Part shown: piece by piece, positions 1,491-14,079 of the stretch | Numbering within the stretch: the first letter of the stretch is position 1 | How the letters are laid out: every line of letters starts with the position of its first letter | Assembly (NCBI GenBank): GCA_963830105.1 | Contig: CAWHLH010000005.1 | Location: 154,226 to 218,225 of the forward strand | Source of the DNA: an uncultured Gammaproteobacteria bacterium | Lineage (GTDB): Bacteria; Pseudomonadota; Gammaproteobacteria; DATFLG01 | Length of the DNA stretch: 64,000 nt | Direction: 5' to 3' | The notes under the pieces: model-generated | What the model was told of the DNA's origin: nothing | Seen by the model: the letters and a program-made list of their open reading frames with translations, nothing else | Databases searched by the model: none | Translations under genes and position numbers: made by a program

Positions 1491-3915
1491 CATGTCCCTG
1501 CCCGCCGCCCAAGTCCCGGATGAGGCCGCTGCCGCCCAGTCGGATCGCGTTGCTGCTCTGGTAGGGCGCCTGAAGCGCAAGTACCGGGGCCGAATCACCG
1601 GCGAACTGGTGGTCCCGGCAAAGCCGGGCCGCTATGACCCTTTCCCTCCAGACCTGGAGCCACGGCTTGCGCAGGCCTTGCGCACCCGCGGTGTGGAGCG
1701 CCTGTACAGTCATCAGCGGGCGGCGTGGGACGCGGTCCGCGCCGCCCGCCACACCGTGGTGGTCACGCCCACCGCCTCCGGCAAGACCCTGTGCTACAAC
1801 CTGCCCGTGCTGCAAGCCGCCTTGCAGGACAAGGCGAAGGCCCTGTACCTGTTTCCCACCAAGGCCCTGTCCCAGGATCAGGTGGCCGAGATCCTGGAAC
1901 TGAACCGCGGCGGGGAACTGGGGGTGCGTGCCTACACCTTCGACGGCGACACCCCGGGCGATGCGCGCAAGGCGGTGCGCACCCGCGGGGACATCGTGGT
2001 GTCCAACCCGGACATGCTGCACCAGGGCATCCTGCCGCATCACACCAAGTGGGCCCAGTTCTTCGAGAACCTGCGTTATGTGGTGATCGACGAAATGCAC
2101 ACCTACCGCGGCGTGTTCGGCTCCCATGTGGCCAATGTGCTGCGCCGTCTGCGGCGCATCTGCCGCTTCTACGGCAGCGAGCCGGTGTTCATCCTGTGCT
2201 CGGCCACCATCGCCAACCCCGGGGAACTGGCCGAGCAGCTGATCGAAGCGCCGGTGCGGACCATCGACGAGAGCGGCGCGCCCCAGGGGGCGAAACAACT
2301 GCTGCTGTGGAACCCGCCGGTGATCAACCCGGACCTGGGCATCCGAGCCTCGGCCCGTTCCCAGACCACCCGCATCGCGCGCTATGCGGTGAAAAGCGGG
2401 CTGAAGACCATTCTGTTCACCCAGACCCGTCTGATGGTGGAGGTGCTCACCAAGTACCTCAAGGACGTGTTCGACCGGGACCCGCGCCGTCCGCCGCGGG
2501 TGCGGGCCTACCGGGGCGGCTATCTGCCCACGGAACGCCGCGATACCGAGCGCAAGCTGCGGGCGGGCTCGGTGGACTGCGTGATCTCCACCTCGGCCCT
2601 GGAGCTGGGCGTGGACATCGGCGCTTTGGATGTGTGCGTGCTGAACGGCTATCCGGGCACCATTGCCGGGACCTGGCAGCGACTGGGCCGGGCAGGGCGC
2701 CGCAACCGGCCGGCCCTGGGGGTGCTGGTGGCTACCAGCGAGCCGCTGGATCAGTACATCGTGCGCAATCCGGATTTCTTCCTGGGAGCGTCGCCGGAGC
2801 ATGCGCGCATCGATCCCGACCAGTTGCTGATCCTCATGGACCATATCCGCTGTGCGGCCTTCGAGCTGGTCTTTCGTGAGGGCGAACGCTTCGGCAAGGA
2901 AGACCTTCCGGAATGTCTCGCCTACCTGGAGGAAGAGGGCGTGCTGCATCGCGAAGGCGAACGCTGGCACTGGATGGATGACAGCTATCCGGCCAACAGC
3001 GTGAGCCTGCGCTCGGTGGCCGAGGGCAATTTCGTGGTCATCGACATTACCGACGGCGGTAAGCAGGTGATCGCCGAAGTGGACTACACCAGCGCGCCGG
3101 TGACCCTTTACGAAGGAGCGATCTACATGGTGCAGGCCAGGCCCTGGCAGGTGGAGCGCCTGGACTGGGAAGGACGCAAGGCGTTCGTGCGCCAGACCGA
3201 GGCCGACTACTACACCGACGCCATCGACTACACGAGACTGAAGATTCTGGAGGACTTCGAGCGGGCCTCGGGCCGCGGCGCCCATTGCGCCCGGGGCGAG
3301 GTGCACGTGGTGCGGCGGGTGGCCGGCTACAAGAAGATCCGCTATTACACCCACGACAACGTGGGCTACGGCAACGTGGACCTGCCCGACCAGGAAATGC
3401 ACACCACGGCTGTGTGGTGGCAGGTGGACAGCAGCGCCCTGGAGGCCGCCTTCGAAAGCCGCTGGCAGGCCCTGGACGGCTTTCTCGGCGCCGCCTATGC
3501 CATGCATTCGGTGGCCGCCCTGCTCACCATGTCCGAGCTGCGCGACCTGGGCCGCGCGGTGGGCGACGGGCAGGGTACCTGGTTCGCCACTGTGGACACC
3601 GACGGACGCGGGCGCATGCGCGGCGCGGACGGCGAACCCGTGGAAGCCGACACGCATGGCTTCGTGCCCACCGTGTTCCTGTACGACAACTATCCCGGCG
3701 GCGTCGGGCTGTCGGCGCCGCTGTTCGATCTGCGCGGGAAGGTGCTCGCAGGCGCCCATGCCCTGGTCACGAGCTGCGGCTGCCGCAACGGGTGCCCGGC
3801 CTGCGTGGGCCCGATCCTGGCCAGTGAAGAAACGCGTGGCGGATCGCCCAAGGCCGCCGCTCTGCGGGTGATCGATCTGTTGGCCGCGGGGCGTTCCAGC
3901 CGTGAGCACGCTTAG
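1474..3915 (+). CDS. DEAD/DEAH-box helicase with a C-terminal DUF1998/MZB zinc-binding domain (MrfA/YprA-like)
   Basis: 813 aa. It has a Walker A motif (TPTASGKT), a DEMH box (VIDEMHTYRG), a helicase C-terminal domain, and a C-terminal 4-Cys cluster (SCGCRNGCPAC). It overlaps the downstream gene by 14 nt. Confidence 0.8.
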   Translation: MENRQAMSLPAAQVPDEAAAAQSDRVAALVGRLKRKYRGRITGELVVPAKPGRYDPFPPDLEPRLAQALRTRGVERLYSHQRAAWDAVRAARHTVVVTPTASGKTLCYNLPVLQAALQDKAKALYLFPTKALSQDQVAEILELNRGGELGVRAYTFDGDTPGDARKAVRTRGDIVVSNPDMLHQGILPHHTKWAQFFENLRYVVIDEMHTYRGVFGSHVANVLRRLRRICRFYGSEPVFILCSATIANPGELAEQLIEAPVRTIDESGAPQGAKQLLLWNPPVINPDLGIRASARSQTTRIARYAVKSGLKTILFTQTRLMVEVLTKYLKDVFDRDPRRPPRVRAYRGGYLPTERRDTERKLRAGSVDCVISTSALELGVDIGALDVCVLNGYPGTIAGTWQRLGRAGRRNRPALGVLVATSEPLDQYIVRNPDFFLGASPEHARIDPDQLLILMDHIRCAAFELVFREGERFGKEDLPECLAYLEEEGVLHREGERWHWMDDSYPANSVSLRSVAEGNFVVIDITDGGKQVIAEVDYTSAPVTLYEGAIYMVQARPWQVERLDWEGRKAFVRQTEADYYTDAIDYTRLKILEDFERASGRGAHCARGEVHVVRRVAGYKKIRYYTHDNVGYGNVDLPDQEMHTTAVWWQVDSSALEAAFESRWQALDGFLGAAYAMHSVAALLTMSELRDLGRAVGDGQGTWFATVDTDGRGRMRGADGEPVEADTHGFVPTVFLYDNYPGGVGLSAPLFDLRGKVLAGAHALVTSCGCRNGCPACVGPILASEETRGGSPKAAALRVIDLLAAGRSSREHA

Positions 3916-5125
3916 GGACAGACTGGGCAAGCTCCAGTCGACCGACCCGGCTCTCACCCAGGCGGCCCAGGTTCGCTCTGGCCTGGGCGAGCGCATGCAG
4001 CGCCTGCGTGGCGCCGATCCCGAGCGGAGCGAGAAGGACAACGCGGTGCTGGCCGAGCGGCTCGGCGGTGACTGCATCGCCGAAGGCGTCATTGCGGTAC
4101 GGGAGACGTTGGCCCTGGAGCATGGTCATGGGCGCGTGCGTCTGCGCGAGGCGTTCGCGACGTCGTTGGACGCGCTTGCTCCCGGTCGGTCCGTAGGCAT
4201 CGAGGACCTGGTATTCATGGATACCGAGACCACCGGCCTGGCCGGCGGAACCGGTACGGTCGTGTTTCTGCTGGGGTTGGCGCGACTGGGGCCTGCAGGT
4301 CTGGAACTCATGCAGTTGGTGCTGACCCGCTTCTCCGGGGAAGCCGCGCTGCTGGAGGCGGGCCGTGAGTGGATGGCCCGCGGGCAGGCCGTGGTCACTT
4401 TCAACGGCCGCAGCTTCGATGTACCCCTGCTGACCGCCCGGTATCGCCTCAAGGGTCGGACGGATCCGTTTTCAGCGTTGCCCCAAATCGATCTGCTGCA
4501 TCCCACCCGGCGTGCTTTTGCGCGGCACTGGCCGGATTGCCGCCTGCAGAGCGCCGAACAGCGGCTGCTGGATTTTCACCGTCGCGATGATCTGCCTGGT
4601 GCCATGGCGCCCCAGGCGTGGTTCGACTGGGTACGGCGCGGCTCCATGGCGCTGCTGCCCGCGGTGGCGAAACACAACCGCTGGGACTTGCTTTCCCTGG
4701 CGGCGCTGGTGCCGGTTCTGGAAGACGTGTACCGCGACCCGGGAGCCTGGGGCGGAGATCCGCTGGCGGTGGCCCGTTTTCAACGGGGGCGGGGGGACGG
4801 CGCCAGTGCCCTGGCCATGCTGGAGGCCTACGGGCATAACCTCTGTCCCGCCGGCTCCAACGAACTGGCGCGGCTGCATCGCGACCAGGGCGACTGGGCG
4901 GCAGCGGTCGCCATCTGGCGGCGGTTGGCCGCTGACGACAACGTCGAAGCCCTGGAACGCCTGAGCAAGTTCTACGAGCATGTGTGCGGGGATTTTGCAC
5001 AGGCCTTGCACTATGCTGAACGATTGGCGCTGGTGGAGCGCGCCAATCCGGCTCACGCGCACCGCTTGCAGCGTCTTCATTCCCGTCTTGGACGACGGGT
5101 TTCCTTGGCGGCGGGCGGTTCCTGA
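3902..5125 (+). CDS. RNase H-like DEDD 3'-5' exonuclease (YprB/MrfB-like, RNase_H_2 fold) with a C-terminal TPR-like region
   Basis: 407 aa. It carries LVFMDTETTGL (exonuclease motif I), VTFNGRSFDVPLL, a DLLHPTRR...CRLQSAEQRLL block, and an HNRWDLLSL block, all typical of the YprB family. The C-terminus has helical repeats. Confidence 0.7.
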   Translation: MSTLRDRLGKLQSTDPALTQAAQVRSGLGERMQRLRGADPERSEKDNAVLAERLGGDCIAEGVIAVRETLALEHGHGRVRLREAFATSLDALAPGRSVGIEDLVFMDTETTGLAGGTGTVVFLLGLARLGPAGLELMQLVLTRFSGEAALLEAGREWMARGQAVVTFNGRSFDVPLLTARYRLKGRTDPFSALPQIDLLHPTRRAFARHWPDCRLQSAEQRLLDFHRRDDLPGAMAPQAWFDWVRRGSMALLPAVAKHNRWDLLSLAALVPVLEDVYRDPGAWGGDPLAVARFQRGRGDGASALAMLEAYGHNLCPAGSNELARLHRDQGDWAAAVAIWRRLAADDNVEALERLSKFYEHVCGDFAQALHYAERLALVERANPAHAHRLQRLHSRLGRRVSLAAGGS

Positions 5126-5265
5126 TACCATCCCATCCGTTGCCTCGTTCCGGGCACTCCCCGGGCTGCAGTAAGACGCCGCCCGCGCCATTGGCCGGCA
5201 GTCCGACGGGGATTCCGGACACGGTGCGTCACCCCAGCGCCTTTCAACACAACAGAGGATGCCCT

Positions 5266-5550
5266 ATGCCCAATGACAACTCTGCCTACCCTCAGACCTG
5301 GAACGGATCAGTCCCCAGCCATCGGGAAAGACGACTGCACGAAACCTACGAGTGGATACACATCCTTAACGATTCACTCTCCAGTTTGTTCTTCGTGATC
5401 GGCAGTGTCTTCTTCTTCTATCCCAGCATGCAGGACTACGGCACCTGGCTTTTTCTGATCGGCAGTATCCAGATGCTGATCGGCCCCATGATCCGGATAG
5501 CCAACAAGCTGCACGTGCGCAACATCCGCAAGGAGCTCATTCACTGGTGA
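5266..5550 (+). CDS. Small two-helix membrane protein (YrhK-like)
   Basis: There is an RBS (agagga) before the ATG at 5266. The hydrophobic stretches are ILNDSLSSLFFVIGSVFFFY and WLFLIGSIQMLIGPMI. Confidence 0.45.
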   Translation: MPNDNSAYPQTWNGSVPSHRERRLHETYEWIHILNDSLSSLFFVIGSVFFFYPSMQDYGTWLFLIGSIQMLIGPMIRIANKLHVRNIRKELIHW

Positions 5551-5582
5551 GCGTTGTTTCGGTGCGTCGACAGGAGACCACC

Positions 5583-6086
5583 ATGGACCAGATTCGAATC
5601 GCACCGGCCGGCATAGAGGACGTGCCTGTCATTCACGAGATGATCGGCGCTTTGGCCGACCATCTGGGCTTCGCCCACGAGTTGGTGGCCACCGAAGGCG
5701 ATTTGCATGATGCGCTGTTCGGCGCACGCCCCAGGGCGGAAGTCGTACTTGCCTACGTGGGCGATGCACCGGCCGGCTTTGTGCTCTTTTACAACAACTA
5801 TTCCACGTTCCGCGGGCGCTGCGGCATTCATGTGGAGGACCTGTACGTGCTGCCGGCCTGGCGGGGCAAGCGGATCGGACGCCGGTTGTTGGCGCATATC
5901 GCCCGTTTGACTCTTGAGCGCGGGTGCAGTCGCCTGGAGTGGTGGGTGCTGGCCAGGGACGAACGCGCATCGCGTTTCTACGAGCAATTGGGCGCCACGG
6001 CGAAGGACGAATGGACGGTGTACCGGCTGAAGGGCGAGCCGCTGGTGCAGCTCGCCAGGGAAGTGCAGGGGCGGGAACCGGGGTGA
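5583..6086 (+). CDS. GNAT family N-acetyltransferase
   Basis: It has an acetyl-CoA binding block (LYVLPAWRGKRIGRRLLAHI) and a typical GNAT length of about 167 aa. Confidence 0.8.
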   Translation: MDQIRIAPAGIEDVPVIHEMIGALADHLGFAHELVATEGDLHDALFGARPRAEVVLAYVGDAPAGFVLFYNNYSTFRGRCGIHVEDLYVLPAWRGKRIGRRLLAHIARLTLERGCSRLEWWVLARDERASRFYEQLGATAKDEWTVYRLKGEPLVQLAREVQGREPG

Positions 6087-6566
6087 CGGCGGGTATCGTT
6101 CCTCGGACGGACCGCAAGGCCGTGAAACGGACATTGGCGGGACAGTCCCGCGGGTTTGGCCAGGCGGTGGAGCCGCCCCATGTGCCACTGTGGTCGTAGG
6201 TTGGGCTGAGGAGCGCGAAGCCCAACAGACTCCGTAGGAATGCGTCGTACCCGTCTGGTGTGAGAGGGTTCCGCCGTCCGACTGGAACATTTCCGCGGCT
6301 GGACAATAAGTAGTGATACCCACCGCTGTGCGGCGGCAGGTATTCACAGCGACGCGCACCCCGGCTGCGCAGAAGGACCAGGAGTGGCCCGGGGGCGTGC
6401 CATGCGTTCCCTTTTTCTTGCAGGGCTTATGTGCCTGCTGTTCACGGAGCCCGGGCTCGCCCTGGACATCACCATCGATTTTGCGCAGAAGGGTACGGGT
6501 GTCAATCTGCCCAGCGGCCCCAACTGTAACGGTGCGGGTGCCGCTCTGAAAATGAGGGAGACTCGA

Positions 6567-7181
6567 ATGGCGAGCTGGAACATCCAAGGGCAGTATATGG
6601 AGACCTGCAACTGCGATTTCATATGCCCCTGCATTGGATCGAACCTGACGGCACGTCCCACCGAAGGCGATTGCAAGGCGGCGATCGCCCTGCGTATCGA
6701 CGAGGGGCGGAAGGATGGTGTCGCGTTGGACGGTTTGGCCTTCATCGTTCTCGCACACTCGCCGGGGCCCAGGGCCGACGGGAACATCAAGGTCGGTCTC
6801 ATCGTCGACGAAAATGCGGATGACGCGCAGACCGAGGCCATCAGTCAGATTGCTACGGGCGCCGCTGGTGGGCCGATGACGATACTGGCCCCGCTGGTGA
6901 GCGAAATTGTCGGCGTGGAGAAGCGGCCGATCCGGTTTGAGGTGGATGGTCTGAACCGTGCGGTCATGGCCGGTGAGCTGATCGACCAGGCCCTGACGGG
7001 GGTACCGAGCCTTTCCAAGGAGGGCGAGCCGATCTGTCTGGACAACACGGCCCATCCGGTGTCCGACAGACTCGCCCTGGCCAAGGCGACCCACAGCCGG
7101 TTCCACGCCTTCGGCATCGATTGGGACGACGCAAGCGGTCTGCGCAACGGCCATTTCGCTCCGTTCTCCTGGGCCGCCTGA
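6567..7181 (+). CDS. DUF1326 family protein (the in-frame upstream ATG at 6384/6402 would add a signal-peptide-like extension)
   Basis: The N-terminal W-x-G-x-Y-x-E-x-C-N-C-D-x-x-C-P-C motif (MASWNIQGQYMETCNCDFICPC) is diagnostic of DUF1326. A gagggag RBS precedes the ATG at 6567. Confidence 0.6.
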   Translation: MASWNIQGQYMETCNCDFICPCIGSNLTARPTEGDCKAAIALRIDEGRKDGVALDGLAFIVLAHSPGPRADGNIKVGLIVDENADDAQTEAISQIATGAAGGPMTILAPLVSEIVGVEKRPIRFEVDGLNRAVMAGELIDQALTGVPSLSKEGEPICLDNTAHPVSDRLALAKATHSRFHAFGIDWDDASGLRNGHFAPFSWAA

Positions 7182-7404
7182 ACGCAGCGCCGTCCTTTCC
7201 TCGCACGGCGTTGGGCTGCAGCTCTTGCGTTCAGAGTTCCGGGGGCTCTGGGTCTGCACGTGAGTGCTGGCAGCATCGAAGGTCCGCGGGCTGTCAGCAG
7301 GTGCCCTGCACCCGGTGTCCGTTTCAAGGCGATGGGTAAGGCGTCTGCCAATCTGACCCCGGAGCTGCGGCTGCAGCCGCCTGACGTGGGGGTGTTGGCC
7401 ACCG

Positions 7405-7525
7405 GTGAGCACAAGGCGCGGTTCTACGAGCAATTGGGTGCGGCCGCCACGGACGAATGGACGCTCTATCGCGTGCGGGGTGAATCTCTGGCGCTGCTCG
7501 CTGGCGAGCCGCAGGTGGCGGGGCT
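7405..7525 (+). pseudogene. Diverged remnant of the 3' end of a GNAT gene (a paralogous fragment of 5975-6086)
   Basis: About 110 nt at roughly 80% identity to the 3' end of the GNAT CDS at 5583-6086. It is in frame as ...ARFYEQLGAAATDEWTLYRVRGESLALLAGEPQVA versus ...SRFYEQLGATAKDEWTVYRLKGEPLVQLAREVQG. There is no N-terminal part, no start and no RBS. Confidence 0.5.
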
Positions 7526-7635
7526 GGACGGACGGCGTGCGGGGCATAATCGATGCGGGCTGGCGCTGAAACCGACTGCCGGTAGGCGTTATAATCGGCT
7601 GCGATCTGGACAGGCAGCTGGGTGGCGGCTTAGGG

Positions 7636-8082
7636 GTGCGCAAGGAACTCTACACAGAAATCGAAATCGCTGCGGATGCCGGCCGGGTTTGGGATGTACT
7701 TACCGACTTTGCGCGGTTCCCGGAGTGGAACCCGTTTATCCGCAGCATCCAGGGCGAGCGGGAAATCGGCGCGCGGTTGTCCGTGCGGATCGAACCGCCC
7801 GGGGGACGCCCGATGGCGTTTCGGCCCATGGTGGTCACGGTGCGCCCACGGGGGGAACTGGGTTGGATCGGTCGCCTGGGCGTCCCGGGACTTTTCGATG
7901 GCGAGCACAGTTTTCGGATCGATCCGCTGACGGGCGGACGGGTCAACTTCATTCAGCGCGAAGTCTTTACCGGCGTGCTGGTGCCGCTCGTATGGCGTGC
8001 TCTCAATCGCCGGGTGCGGGCGGGCTTTGAAGCGATGAACGCGGCCTTGCGCGCGCGTGCGGAAGGCGCAGGCGAACAATAG
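7636..8082 (+). CDS. SRPBCC (Bet v1-like / polyketide cyclase-dehydrase) family protein
   Basis: 148 aa. The N-terminal E-I-x-I-x-A-x-x-x-x-V-W-x-x-L-T-D-F-x-x-x-P-x-W-N-P pattern is characteristic of this family. Confidence 0.65.
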   Translation: MRKELYTEIEIAADAGRVWDVLTDFARFPEWNPFIRSIQGEREIGARLSVRIEPPGGRPMAFRPMVVTVRPRGELGWIGRLGVPGLFDGEHSFRIDPLTGGRVNFIQREVFTGVLVPLVWRALNRRVRAGFEAMNAALRARAEGAGEQ

Positions 8083-8109
8083 ACGGGATGGCATTCACGG
8101 GAGGCGAAA

Positions 8110-8718
8110 TTGGCTGAAGCTGAGGAAATGACAGCGCGGGAGCGTTTGCGCCGCGCCCAGAAACTCTTGAGCGAGGGTAAATCGGAGTCGTTGGCGCTGG
8201 CCGCACGGGAGCTCATTCAGGGGTTTGACGAACGCCAGCGCGACTACGACGAGGCACGCAGGGAGTTGAAGCGAAAGAAGCGCCAGGGCTGGAGCGTGGC
8301 GCAGCTCGGCATCAAGGTGGAGAAGGCCTACAAGAGCGCCGACGCGATCATAGAGATTTCAGTATTCGATCGTGTGCCCGAGCGCACCGTGATCAGTCTC
8401 TATCACACGCCGGTCGGCAAGCAGATGAAGGCCAGAGCGAAGCGCCTTGCCGAGGGTCTGGCGAGTCTGGACCATGCCGTGCCCGCAGATCCGATGGCGG
8501 CCGAGTGGCGCGAACTGCTCCGTCAGAGCAGTGCGGACCTGGATGCTGCCACCCGAGGGACGTTGCTGGCGCCTCCGATGCTCAACAAGAAGGCGACCAA
8601 GATGCATTTCGCCGTGGAAGATGTGGAGGGGGATCGCGCTGACGCAATCCGTGAAGCGCTCGAGCTGATTGGTGTGCGCTACAAACTTCACGCGCGGTGC
8701 CTGGACCGCCTCCCCTGA
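8110..8718 (+). CDS. Hypothetical protein
   Basis: 202-aa ORF with coding-like codon usage; no family recognised. It is convergent with the PilZ gene. Confidence 0.35.
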   Translation: MAEAEEMTARERLRRAQKLLSEGKSESLALAARELIQGFDERQRDYDEARRELKRKKRQGWSVAQLGIKVEKAYKSADAIIEISVFDRVPERTVISLYHTPVGKQMKARAKRLAEGLASLDHAVPADPMAAEWRELLRQSSADLDAATRGTLLAPPMLNKKATKMHFAVEDVEGDRADAIREALELIGVRYKLHARCLDRLP

Positions 8719-9377: not shown

Positions 9378-9842
9378 CTACCCGGGTTCAGGCGCATGAT
9401 CCGCGGCAAGTAGCCTATCGAAGGCGAGGGTGAGCTGATCGACAGCCGCCAGCACCGGCGGGGAAACCGGCTCCTCAGGTGCGCTTTGGCCAATCTCGAT
9501 GCCCCACAGCAGCGTCGGGCTCGGCAGCAGGCCCAACCGGTCGGCAAGGGCCAGCGCATCTCCCAGGCCCAGCCCGTGGCTGCTGAACGGCTGGCCCCAG
9601 CCCGGCGGGCAGGGGTCCATCGGCCAGCGCAGGTAGTGGAGGGTGCCCTCCGGGCGATCGGAGCGTACCCCGTCCACTACCAGCAGCGGTCCGTCCAGGG
9701 GCAGGTGGCCGAGCAATGCCATCGGCGAGTCGCATTGGATGCACGGGATATCCGGGTGCCGTTGCTGCAGGCGGCGGACCACCAGCCAGCCGATCTGGTC
9801 GTCGCCGGCGTGGGAGCCGATACCGATCACCTGCAGTGTCAT
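9378..9842 (-). CDS. [NiFe]-hydrogenase maturation endopeptidase (HybD/HoxW family) for the group 3b enzyme
   Basis: The N-terminus MTLQVIGIGSHAGDDQIGW is typical of HycI/HoxW-type proteases. Its ATG overlaps the large-subunit stop (ATGA). Confidence 0.75.
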   Translation of the reverse strand: MTLQVIGIGSHAGDDQIGWLVVRRLQQRHPDIPCIQCDSPMALLGHLPLDGPLLVVDGVRSDRPEGTLHYLRWPMDPCPPGWGQPFSSHGLGLGDALALADRLGLLPSPTLLWGIEIGQSAPEEPVSPPVLAAVDQLTLAFDRLLAADHAPEPG

Positions 9843-11137
9843 CCGCGGTGTACCCGCAGGTCCAGAAAATGGGTGGCGCAGGAGATGCACGGATCGTAGT
9901 TGCGGATGACCGTTTCGCACAGCAGGCGCAGCGCTTGGTCGTCGCGGTCCAGCTCGCCGGCTTCCAGGGCCCATTTGAGATCCTGTTCGATGCGGGCCTG
10001 GTTCTGGCTGGTAGGCGGCACGATGCGGCTGTCGGTCACTATGCCGCTGTCGTCGAGTTCGTAGCGGTGCCAGAGGAAGCCCCGCGGCGCTTCGGTGCAG
10101 CCGAAGCCGACGCCGGCGCGTGGCGTGGGTTCAAGGAGGGCCGCGGCCGGCGCCCGGTAGCGCTCCAGTATCCGGATCGCTTCCACGCAGCCGTAGTAGA
10201 TCTCCACCGCTCGCGCCACCACACTGTGGAACATGTTGCGGCTGGGCCAGGACAGGCCGGTGGCCTCCAGCAGGTCCTGCACCCGCGGCGGCAGCCGGTC
10301 CAGATTGAGATTCACACGCGCCAGCGGGCCCACCAGGTAGGGTTGGCCGTGCAGGTGGCTGTGCAGGGCGGTGGAATGGGGGACCTGGTGTTCCCGGAAA
10401 TGTTGGTCGAACTCGCGGATGTCGATATCCAGACCCGCGCTGGAAATCAGCCGCCCCTCGTTCATGGGGTACTCGTCCGGATGATGCAGGGCGACGCTGG
10501 TGAACTCCTGATCGCTGGCCGGCAGATCCAGCGAGGCGGTCCAGCGCACCAGTTCTTCGGCATCGGCCAATGCCTCGTGCAGCCGTTCCAGCAGGGCGCG
10601 GACTTCGGCGGGCGTGGGTGCACGGCTGAAGCCGCCCACCCGGGCGCCCACCGGGTGTACGGAGCGGGCGCCCAGGGCCGCGACGATGGCGTTGCCGAGC
10701 GCCTGCAGGCGCAGACCGCGGCGCACCTCGGCGGGATAGTCCTGCGCCAGGGCGGTAACGCTGGGGTAACCGAGAAAATCCGGCGCCGCCAGCATGTGGA
10801 TATGCAGGGCGTGGCTCTCCAGCCATTCGCCGCAGTAATACAGCCGCCGCATGTCCCGCACCCACGGGCCTGGCTCCATGCCGAAAGCCTGTTCGATGGC
10901 ATGGACGGCGCTCATCTGATAGGCCACCGGGCAGATGCCGCAGATGCGCGCCACCATGTCCGGCACCTCATGGTAGTCGCGACCCACCAGGAACTGTTCG
11001 AACAAACGCGGCGGCTCGTAGATGCGCAGCATGAGCTGCTCGATCCGCCCGTCCCGCACGACGAGCTCGAGGGCGCCTTCGCCCTCCACCCGGGCCAGAA
11101 CAGGAACATGGATGTCCACGCTGCGCCGCTCAGTCAT
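9839..11137 (-). CDS. hyhL: [NiFe]-hydrogenase group 3b large (alpha) subunit
   Basis: N-terminal RICGICPVAY and C-terminal DPCISCATH Ni-binding motifs are present. The real start is MTERRSVDIHVPV, which overlaps the small-subunit stop. Confidence 0.85.
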   Translation of the reverse strand: MTERRSVDIHVPVLARVEGEGALELVVRDGRIEQLMLRIYEPPRLFEQFLVGRDYHEVPDMVARICGICPVAYQMSAVHAIEQAFGMEPGPWVRDMRRLYYCGEWLESHALHIHMLAAPDFLGYPSVTALAQDYPAEVRRGLRLQALGNAIVAALGARSVHPVGARVGGFSRAPTPAEVRALLERLHEALADAEELVRWTASLDLPASDQEFTSVALHHPDEYPMNEGRLISSAGLDIDIREFDQHFREHQVPHSTALHSHLHGQPYLVGPLARVNLNLDRLPPRVQDLLEATGLSWPSRNMFHSVVARAVEIYYGCVEAIRILERYRAPAAALLEPTPRAGVGFGCTEAPRGFLWHRYELDDSGIVTDSRIVPPTSQNQARIEQDLKWALEAGELDRDDQALRLLCETVIRNYDPCISCATHFLDLRVHRG

Positions 11138-11915
11138 GGCTGTCTCCCAGGACCCGCTGGGAGGCCTCGGCAAACACCGTTTGGGCGCTGTGGATGAAGC
11201 GGTAACGACGGGCGATGGCCTCCGGCAGCAGGCCCAGGCCCTGGAAACAGCCTGCAAGGGCATCGGCGTTGGGGTTGTCGGACGGCCCGTAGCAGCCGTA
11301 GCAGTCCCTCCCGAAGCGCGGACACAGCGCACCGCAGCCGGTACGGGTCACCGGGCCCAGGCAGGGTTGTCCATGGGCCACCAGTACGCACACGTTCTGA
11401 TGGCGTTTGCAGTCCAGGCACACCTTGTCTGTTTCCGGGACCGGGGTGACGCCGAACAGCAAGGCCCGCACGGCGGCCAGCAGCTGGGCGCCGCTCACCG
11501 GGCAGCCCCACAGTTCGAAGTCTACCGGCACGTGGGCGGCGACAGGCGTCGCAGTGGCCAACGTCTCGATGTACTCCGGGCTGGCATAGACCCGCGCCAT
11601 CCATTCGCCGCTATCGGCGTTGTTGCGCAGGGCCTGCAGGCCTCCGGAAGTGGCGCAGGCACCGATGGTGATCAGCAGGCCACTGTTGGCGCGTACCTGC
11701 CGGATGCGGGCCTGTTCGTCCGGCGTGGAGATGCTCCCTTCCACGAAGGCAATGTCCACCGGCGCCTCGGGGTCCACCGCGCCGGCCTCGGCGAAGTGCA
11801 CGATCTCCACCCGCTCGGCCAGCTCCAGCAGATCCTCGCCCAGGTTGAGAAAGGCAAGCTGGCAGCCGTCGCAGGAACTGAACTTGTGGACCGCGATGCG
11901 GGGTTTGGTGCTCAC
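11130..11915 (-). CDS. hyhS: [NiFe]-hydrogenase group 3b small (delta) subunit
   Basis: It has the SCDGCQL and GACATSGG motifs of group 3 small subunits and no Tat signal. Confidence 0.85.
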   Translation of the reverse strand: MSTKPRIAVHKFSSCDGCQLAFLNLGEDLLELAERVEIVHFAEAGAVDPEAPVDIAFVEGSISTPDEQARIRQVRANSGLLITIGACATSGGLQALRNNADSGEWMARVYASPEYIETLATATPVAAHVPVDFELWGCPVSGAQLLAAVRALLFGVTPVPETDKVCLDCKRHQNVCVLVAHGQPCLGPVTRTGCGALCPRFGRDCYGCYGPSDNPNADALAGCFQGLGLLPEAIARRYRFIHSAQTVFAEASQRVLGDSHD

Positions 11916-12151
11916 TGTTCACCCCCGGGTGTGGGCGCGCCGGCTCCCGGTTCGATCAACGCCCCGCTATAGGCGCAGCTGCCCGCGGTTCGTGTCTTGC
12001 CTGCGTTGTTCGCGGTGGCGGTCCGCGGTTCGCACGCCAGCGCGGCTGTTGCCGCCGGGAAGCGTCGGTTGGCGTTCGGGAGCCCGGTCCGGTCCGTCAT
12101 TGGCGTTCTCAGCCTTGCGTGGCGCGTGGTTTGCCGGTCGTTGCGATTCAT

Positions 12152-12984
12152 TCAAAACCCCCGGCGGCCCATCAGCGCAGCCAACTCGCTGTAGGCGAAC
12201 ACGGGTCCGTTGCGGCACACGAAGCTGCCGCCGATCTGGCAGTGGCCGCAGTGGCCCACGGCGCACTGCATGTTGCGCTCCATGCTGACGTAGATGTCTG
12301 CGTCTGCGAGTCCCAGGGCGCGCAGCTCGCGCACCGCCGCGACCATCATGGGCTCGGGTCCGCACATCATGCACAGCGTGCGGGCGGGGTGAATGGCGAT
12401 CTTGTCGAACAGATCGGTGATCAGTCCGACATGCCAGGGCCAGGCGGGTCCGCCCTTGTCGGCAGCCAGCAGCACCTGCGTGTCCGGATGCCGGGCCCAG
12501 GCCTCGTACTGTTCGCGCCACAGCAGATCCTTGGAGTGCTTCACGCCTTGCAGGATGGTCAGCTTTCCATACCGGTCACGCCGGCGCAGGATGTAATGGA
12601 TCGCGGCCACCACGGGCGCGCAGCCCAGTCCCCCGGTGACCACCAGCACGTCCTTGCCTTCCGCGGCCTTCAGCGGCCAGCCACGCCCGTAGGGTCCCCG
12701 GATGCCGATAGAGTCCCCTGCCTGCAGGGCCGCGAGACCGCGGGTCACCCGGCCCAGGGCGCGCACGGTGTGATCCAGCAGGGAATCGTCCCGCGGGTCG
12801 GAGACGATGGATATGGGCACTTCCCCGACTCCGTAAAGGTAAAGCATGTTGAATTGGCCGGGTGCGAAACGGTAGCTTCGCCGTGCCTCGCTGTCGCTCA
12901 ACCCCAGGCGCAGGGTGAACACGTCCGACGCTTCCTCAATGCGCTCCACGATGCGGGCGGGGTGGGGCAGATAGGGGCTGGTCA

Positions 12985-12985
<1 letters not shown>
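12152..12985 (-). CDS. hyhG: Group 3b hydrogenase gamma subunit (FAD/NAD(P)-binding oxidoreductase with a [2Fe-2S] cluster, anaerobic sulfite reductase B-like)
   Basis: The real start is MTSPYLPHP (277 aa). It has an RxYS FAD motif, VLVVTGGLGCAP, and a C-terminal CAVGHCGHC cluster. Its ATGA overlaps the beta subunit. Confidence 0.8.

Positions 12986-14079
<1,094 letters not shown>

Follow-up and report, generated by a model that had tools for sequence, protein, structure and literature searches.

A lineage-specific insertion with an orphan DUF1326 gene, bounded by an intact GNAT gene and a decayed piece of its 3' end, in an uncultured gammaproteobacterium

Organization of the locus

The window analysed here is a 64-kb stretch of DNA from an uncultured Gammaproteobacteria bacterium, and all positions given for it are window positions. 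Between the genes for a YrhK-like small membrane protein and an SRPBCC protein, it carries an intact GNAT acetyltransferase gene, a non-coding spacer (IG1), a DUF1326 gene, a second non-coding spacer (IG2) and a remnant of the 3' end of the GNAT gene in the same orientation (Table 1). Three relatives (L001, L002 and L142) have the same gene order around this site as the window, namely YrhK-GNAT-SRPBCC with ~260-285 nt between the last two genes, and are devoid of both DUF1326 and the second GNAT piece, from which it follows that the ~1.3 kb lying between the two GNAT copies (roughly 6038-7353) is an insertion specific to the window lineage. The initial annotation, which had read the locus as an insertion or deletion scar, was right as to the insertion.

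In a more distant lineage (L055-L057), YrhK is separated from SRPBCC by 233 nt (2610-2842 in L055) and there is no GNAT gene at all, nor was a GNAT relic detected in the L055 spacer (tblastn, E of at least 0.58). These gene orders make the content of the yrhK-SRPBCC slot variable between lineages, which have no GNAT, GNAT alone, or GNAT together with DUF1326. A gain of GNAT in the group formed by the window, L001 and L002 and a loss in the L055-L057 lineage are both compatible with them.

Table 1. Features of the locus and its surroundings, in window positions
Feature	Position	Strand	Remarks
RNase_H_2 family gene	3902-5125		left of YrhK
Patch of unusual closeness to L001	4159-6037		from three-way distances
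YrhK-like small membrane protein gene	5266-5550	+	left neighbour; PF14145, E 2.1e-22; present in all relatives
GNAT acetyltransferase gene, intact	5583-6086	+	PF00583, E 3.9e-17
Divergent last 16 codons of GNAT	6038-6086	+	mismatch jump relative to L001
Spacer IG1, non-coding	6087-6566		no homologues found
Inverted repeat, left arm	6119-6133	+	14/15 complementary to 7316-7330
DUF1326 gene, orphan	6567-7181	+	204 aa; PF07040, 172 bits
Spacer IG2, non-coding	7182-7353		no homologues found
Inverted repeat, right arm	7316-7330	-	pairs with 6119-6133
GNAT pseudogene remnant	7354-7522	+	3' third only; 72% identity to 5908-6075
Native spacer IG3	7523-7635	+	5' of SRPBCC; promoter-like site at 7566-7595
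SRPBCC (Polyketide_cyc2) gene	7636-8082	+	right neighbour; PF10604, E 2e-16
p202, 202-aa protein	8110-8718		no Pfam family above threshold
PilZ gene	right of p202	-	
[NiFe] hydrogenase cluster	9378-13400	-	protease, large and small subunits, FAD/NAD-binding and Fe-S subunits

The intact GNAT gene and its remnant

The intact GNAT gene encodes a protein of 167 residues with a full PF00583 domain (residues 45-137), motif A included, and shares 91% and 89% amino acid identity with its orthologues in L001 and L002, respectively. Among solved structures, 2fe7 (E 4.7e-29) and a thialysine acetyltransferase, 12jc (E 1.1e-28), come closest, and the protein is accordingly predicted to be of the diamine/thialysine acetyltransferase (SSAT) type. 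No second GNAT gene is found elsewhere in the window.

The last third of this gene (5908-6075) aligns by blastn with 7354-7522 over 123 identities in 170 positions (72%; 3 gaps; E 1e-20), and 26 of 41 residues are identical when the GNAT protein is compared with the same segment by tblastn (E 4e-14). The repeat reported in the initial annotation is thus real and longer than first described, and the identity of about 80% ascribed to it is reached only in the middle ~58 nt (45/58, 78%). It had also been described as an in-frame recurrence without a 5' part; the 5' part is indeed missing, but the copy begins with ~40 nt that are not in frame with the rest. A remnant extending further upstream was rejected, as the similarity of 7182-7346 to the 5' two-thirds of the GNAT genes from four genomes is no better than that of shuffled sequences (z 0.7).

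The remnant has no start codon, has lost its stop codon (TGA to GGA), contains two frameshifts and 3 indels in 170 nt, and encodes Gly in place of an Asp that is constant in 57 of 57 outgroup GNATs and in the three closest ones. Translation of 7260-7640 gives no Pfam match, and the GC contents at the three codon positions (75/50/80) retain a coding-type pattern. Together, the frameshifting, the lost stop codon, the Asp-to-Gly change, the missing 5' part and the retained coding-type GC characterize a 3' piece of GNAT that is fairly well preserved yet dead. Devoid of the acetyl-CoA-binding motif A, it cannot give a functional enzyme.

As to its affinities, the remnant carries the RFYEQLGA motif specific to the GNAT trio of the window, L001 and L002, and displays 21 unique changes in 129 core sites (~16%). 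Among informative quartet sites, the intact window copy pairs with L001 at 4, with the remnant at 2 and with L002 at 1. These counts reveal no particular closeness between the remnant and the intact copy of the window; the remnant branches off at the root of the trio, in line with the behaviour of the block downstream of it (see below). At the protein level, four states shared with the closest GNATs and two reliable ones shared with the outgroup are too few for placement. The tail of the remnant is 59% identical to that of the intact copy, no better than to those of L001 or L002, and a recent common ancestry of the two tails was rejected on this ground. Given that the remnant adjoins SRPBCC, which is the position of the GNAT 3' end in the relatives, the likeliest reading is that of an original GNAT 3' end that was displaced, rather than of a decayed second gene.

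A phylogenetic breakpoint at the insertion site

The insertion site is also a recombination breakpoint. Quartet analysis places the window with L001 upstream of the insert and L001 with L002 downstream of it (Table 2), the difference between the two blocks being highly significant (chi-square p 2.5e-11). Three-way distances computed in 300-nt steps follow the same course: further left, in a helicase gene, the window, L001 and L002 are about equidistant; between 4159 and 6037, the window and L001 differ at 4-11 positions per 100 nt, compared to 11-25 for window-L002 and L001-L002; and from 7636 to ~13000 the window is consistently an outgroup to L001 and L142. At third codon positions, the window shares 94% identity with L001 in YrhK and 84% in GNAT versus 49-65% in all seven downstream genes, the hydrogenase genes standing at 64-65%. 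The ~1.9-kb patch of closeness covers the C-terminal part of RNase_H_2, YrhK (97.5% nucleotide identity to L001) and most of GNAT. These distances indicate a recent homologous exchange, in either direction, between the window and L001 lineages over 4159-6037.

Table 2. Informative quartet sites upstream and downstream of the insert (W, window; L1, L001; L2, L002; outgroup, L055/L057)
Gene or block	(W,L1)	(W,L2)	(L1,L2)
RNaseH	38	27	14
YrhK	8	2	2
Upstream sum	46	29	16
SRPBCC	6	10	41
p202	13	12	35
Downstream sum	19	22	76

The change of affinity takes place within the intact GNAT gene, close to 6038. Mismatches between the window and L001 rise from 32 in 455 positions before 6038 to 21 in 49 after it, as against 64/455 and 15/49 between L001 and L002 (Fisher p for the change in ratio, 0.016). 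This jump makes the intact GNAT gene chimeric, its last 16 codons going with the insert and not with the L001-like patch. Of the four tails, that of the intact copy diverges most, differing by 45-48% from L001 and L002, compared to 31% between the latter two.

The DUF1326 gene and its missing partner

The DUF1326 assignment of the initial annotation was confirmed by a match to PF07040 over profile positions 1-174 of 177 (E 1.6e-50; 172.1 bits against a gathering cut-off of 25); the protein has no solved structural relative. Its best non-self homologues are 81-83% identical at the amino acid level, and nucleotide homology to other DUF1326 loci is limited to 6557-7174, ending just before the stop codon. 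The gene is intact and without decay. The N-terminal Cys cluster METCNCDFICPC is present, and the 87 columns that are at least 95% conserved hold a single deviation (Met69Arg), where family members have 0-3; four unique residues likewise fall within the family range defined by the 119 closest homologues. At the deviating codon (codon 69, 6771-6773), Arg stands where 119/119 of these homologues have Met (SPGPRADGN versus SPG[AP]MADGN), a replacement reachable by a single-base change.

An in-frame, signal-peptide-like extension upstream of the gene (6384-6566), pointed out in the initial annotation, does exist, but its leader is unmatched in the homologues inspected. The extension has a weak coding signature (GC1/2/3 of 64/52/69) and its start is overlapped by a terminator-like site (6391-6411) composed of a hairpin with a T-run. 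A public annotation of this gene (P0001, from the NCBI metagenome-assembled genome record JBAUSR010000030) makes use of part of it, with a 259-aa DUF1326 protein starting at MRSLFLAG and encoded by 6402-7181. Lengths of 203-205 aa are found in 109 of the 119 other homologues listed, and the ones inspected begin with the methionine of an MA(S/D/G)W motif equivalent to the Met encoded at 6567; the longer gene calls inspected have unrelated leaders, none similar to the extension in the window. Since the ATG at 6567 is also preceded, at 6 nt, by a good Shine-Dalgarno sequence (GAGGGAG), the 259-aa start was probably called too early, and the DUF1326 product is expected to be the 204-aa form translated from its own ribosome-binding site.

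In agreement with the initial annotation, which had noted the lack of the usual partner of DUF1326, the window has no homologue of PpoB2 (PF09948, formerly DUF2182; tblastn, best E 4.2), and no PpoB2 relic was found 3' of the DUF1326 stop codon. Among 82 loci with close DUF1326 homologues, PpoB2 is adjacent in 58, usually 15-160 nt 3' of DUF1326. It is lacking within 900 nt on both sides in six, including L054, whose DUF1326 protein (83% amino acid identity) is among the closest homologues, and four further loci have no PpoB2 downstream and too short an upstream sequence to be judged; the remaining 14 gave no call, leaving 64-68 informative loci. With 6-10 partnerless loci among the informative ones, a solo DUF1326 gene is a minority arrangement, yet one with precedent. 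Provided that the DUF1326 gene and the adjacent remnant arrived or arose together, the conservation of the former and the decay of the latter suggest that selection can maintain DUF1326 where no PpoB2/DUF2182 gene adjoins it, a situation shared by roughly 10-15% of the informative loci.

Composition and possible sources of the insert

DUF1326 is the only open reading frame (ORF) of the insert with homologues elsewhere. IG1 and IG2 show no similarity to the spacers of the relatives, to the 82 other DUF1326 loci, to plasmids or to phages; plasmid searches matched the insert only through the DUF1326 ORF (68% to a Polaromonas plasmid gene). IG2 has no colinear counterpart in the other DUF1326 loci, their PpoB2 genes included. 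Spacer matches returned by tblastx were scattered, non-colinear and weak, and were set aside as high-GC noise. Neither 6087-6383 nor IG2 has a coding signature by codon position. Base composition does not set the insert apart as foreign, the GC3 of DUF1326 (79%) being close to that of its neighbours (72-78%). Searches of 5.8 billion proteins and of contig collections yielded no donor, and no lineage was found between identical sequences and those with 83% (DUF1326), 73% (SRPBCC) and 92% (GNAT) identity.

IG1 contains a hairpin (6200-6226) with a perfect 7-bp stem, GTTGGGC-N13-GCCCAAC, within CGTAGGTTGGGCTGAGGAGCGCGAAGCCCAACAG. Its reverse strand reads LLGFALLSPTY, which we take to resemble palindromic repeat motifs of other environmental proteobacteria; being single-copy in the window, it was rejected as a REP-like repeat. 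It was also considered as the recombination site of an integron cassette. Such attC sites are imperfect palindromes (RYYYAAC ... GTTRRRY) of at least ~57 nt that follow an ORF and have an integrase nearby. The hairpin, the only candidate seen by eye, measures 27 nt, lies 5' of the ORF and presents the core motifs in reverse order, and there is no integrase among the genes called at the locus; an integron cassette is not supported by this inspection. A search of 5000-8200 for structured RNAs gave no Rfam match at E values up to 1.

Neighbouring genes and reading frames

A promoter-like site in IG3 (CTGAAA-18 nt-TATAAT, 10/12 matches) precedes SRPBCC, and IG3, TATAAT included, is weakly similar to the spacer between YrhK and SRPBCC in L055 (z 2.0; 14/300 shuffles). 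Two long ORFs cross the site: a stop-free minus-strand frame of 700 aa (5541-7643), antisense to GNAT, the insert and the remnant, and a plus-strand frame (7260-8030) that traverses the remnant and continues into SRPBCC out of phase with that gene. Both have the appearance of high-GC artefacts, not of genes.

A second variable slot lies beside the one studied here, between RNase_H_2 and YrhK. L002 (4126-5595) and L142 (1674-2888) have an extra gene there, a 489-aa ORF in the former and a 404-aa gene call without Pfam match in the latter; the window and L001 have none, and L001 has ~150 extra nt. To the right, the hydrogenase cluster is conserved in L001 and L142, its HycI-like maturation protease being much more divergent (57% amino acid identity) than the structural genes (83-90%).

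Origin of the scar

We consider the locus an ordinary recombination scar, the product of a known kind of event, that coincides with a well-documented phylogenetic breakpoint. The explanation we favour, with a probability of about 0.55, is a homology-assisted integration of the ~1.3 kb followed by pseudogene decay of the displaced GNAT end. Incoming DNA would have integrated at the GNAT/SRPBCC boundary of a single-copy GNAT gene and displaced its old 3' end, supplying a replacement GNAT tail (6038-6086), the two spacers and a DUF1326 gene split from its usual PpoB2/DUF2182 partner. GNAT homology on the incoming DNA was most likely used for this integration. A circular intermediate that bore a GNAT 3' segment may have entered by a single crossover. 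Alternatively, the integration may have proceeded by homology-facilitated illegitimate recombination anchored in GNAT, with its illegitimate joint at 7353/7354; either route would keep one GNAT reading frame intact by way of the replacement tail and leave a truncated direct repeat behind. The orphaned remnant would then have decayed as a pseudogene, while DUF1326 would have stayed intact under selection. The exchange with an L001-like lineage over 4159-6037, which ends where homology stops, may have been part of the same event or a separate one.

The geometry is that of an integration scar, in that the insert is absent from sister genomes and has an intact copy of a resident gene on one side and a truncated one, as a direct repeat, on the other. 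The switch of trees across the site, inside the intact GNAT gene near 6038, also speaks for this explanation, as do the basal placement of the remnant, shared with the downstream block, the restriction of outside homology to the DUF1326 ORF, the contrast between an intact DUF1326 and a decayed remnant, and the lack of a transposase among the genes called across the locus and of a target duplication as judged by eye. The proposal in the initial annotation of a cassette inserted with partial duplication fits in outline.

Several observations weigh against homology-assisted integration. Neither a donor nor an intermediate lineage was found, the nearest DUF1326 and SRPBCC proteins being 83% and 73% identical, so that we infer the mechanism, and with it the order and direction of events, from the scar itself. 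Support for the breakpoint at 6038 comes from 49 nt (p 0.016) in a tail that varies naturally, and the exchange between the window and L001 may have run in either direction. In the 42 sites of the tail, the remnant differs from the relatives at 13-16 and the intact copy at 19-20, which does not make the remnant clearly closer. Its state of decay would equally suit an in-situ duplicate left to neutral change for about the age of the lineage, and a vehicle of the transposition type is hinted at by the 15-nt inverted repeat close to either end of the insert.

Such an in-situ duplication is the strongest competitor, although distinctly less probable than homology-assisted integration. Here, a non-homologous insertion of DUF1326, through repair of a staggered break or a replication error, would have duplicated ~180 nt of the GNAT 3' end; the downstream copy would have decayed neutrally, and an L001-like patch would later have overwritten the upstream copy up to 6037. 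The direct-repeat geometry and the trio-specific motif of the remnant are both in keeping with this scenario. So is its proportion of unique changes, which is roughly what neutral divergence along one lineage would produce, given the third-position identity of the hydrogenase genes, and the 38% difference between the two tails could reflect decay added to drift in a weakly constrained tail. It requires two separate events, however, and the remnant displays no particular affinity to the window's intact copy; the extreme divergence of the intact tail, moreover, is easier to understand if that tail came with the insert.

Transposition appears unlikely. It would have brought a 1212-nt unit (6119-7330), bounded by 15-nt inverted repeats and carrying DUF1326 as cargo, into the GNAT/SRPBCC spacer in the manner of a non-autonomous mobile insertion cassette. 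The left arm (GCCGTGAAACGGACA) and the right arm are complementary at 14 of 15 positions and sit 33 nt and 24 nt, respectively, inside the edges of the insert, and their motif, GCCKTGAAACGGACA, has only these two copies in the 64 kb. A repeat of this kind was matched in 2 of 2000 shuffles and 2 of 640 genomic control pairs, in a test that was post hoc. Against a mobile cassette stand the absence of a target-site duplication beside the arms, as judged by eye, of a transposase among the genes called across the locus, and of a second copy of the unit in the window or in 136 fetched loci (140 including four copies of the window itself); in addition, transposition alone would leave the 170-nt GNAT duplication unexplained. 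Still less likely is an extension of this idea in which 6119-7330 would be a new non-autonomous cassette moving a stand-alone DUF1326, with the putative leader at 6402-6566 yielding an exported, PpoB2-independent periplasmic form of the protein.

The ancestral tandem GNAT pair suggested in the initial annotation, in which DUF1326 would have replaced the 5' two-thirds of the second paralogue, is highly improbable. Its only support is the geometry, in which a 3' fragment lies behind an intact gene and points the same way. Against it, no relative has two GNAT genes, three having one and the L055-L057 lineage none, the remnant groups with the trio of the window, L001 and L002 instead of forming a separate paralogue branch, and the window holds no further GNAT gene. 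Chance similarity and chimeric assembly, the latter suggested by the origin of the sequence in a metagenome-assembled genome, are refuted by the significance of the repeat at the nucleotide and protein levels and by assemblies from two other sequencing runs (ERR11523667 and SRR28003197; contigs L059 and L060), which match the window at 100% identity over 6698 and 2449 nt, respectively, in the junction regions that they span.

The value of the locus is mainly cautionary and descriptive. It illustrates how a short pseudogene remnant can locate and date an insertion, here in the variable yrhK-SRPBCC slot of an uncultured, hydrogenase-bearing gammaproteobacterial lineage.

Comparison with known systems

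The family usually found directly 3' of DUF1326 elsewhere, PpoB2/DUF2182, is absent from the window, which also sets the latter apart from the DmdE/DmdF case. In Ruegeria lacuscaerulensis, the PF07040 protein DmdF is reported to work beside the DUF2182 protein DmdE, and purified DmdF consumed H2O2 in vitro, a peroxidase-like activity (PMC12992908). The window protein belongs to the same family and has the N-terminal C-N-C-x3-C-P-C cluster, but dmdE and dmdF were always adjacent in that study and lay beside DMSP/acrylate genes (PMC12992908), whereas there is no DUF2182/PpoB2 gene in the 64 kb and there are no DMSP genes among those called at the locus. The authors of that study regard the gammaproteobacterial homologues as a phylogenetically distinct group (PMC12992908). 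Our working assumption is that the window DUF1326 product would be a cytoplasmic Cys-cluster protein of the DmdF kind that acts without an adjacent partner.

Compared with the SSAT family (PDB 2fe7, 12jc, 2bei and 2b4d), the intact GNAT protein aligns over residues 5-158 with E values of 1e-28 to 5e-29. The remnant differs from these proteins in covering residues ~109-164 only, without motif A (WRGKRIGRRLL, residues ~93-103).

Campbell-type single crossovers, and homology-facilitated illegitimate recombination in naturally transformable bacteria, leave gene remnants. In contrast to such cases, no donor, intermediate or microhomology at the joint was observed for the window, and its GNAT copies are 28% divergent, so that either the event is old or alleles that had already diverged were joined. 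What it has in common with them is a segment of DNA, lacking in sister genomes, between a complete and a truncated direct-repeat copy of one gene, together with a switch of phylogenetic affinity and no called transposase.

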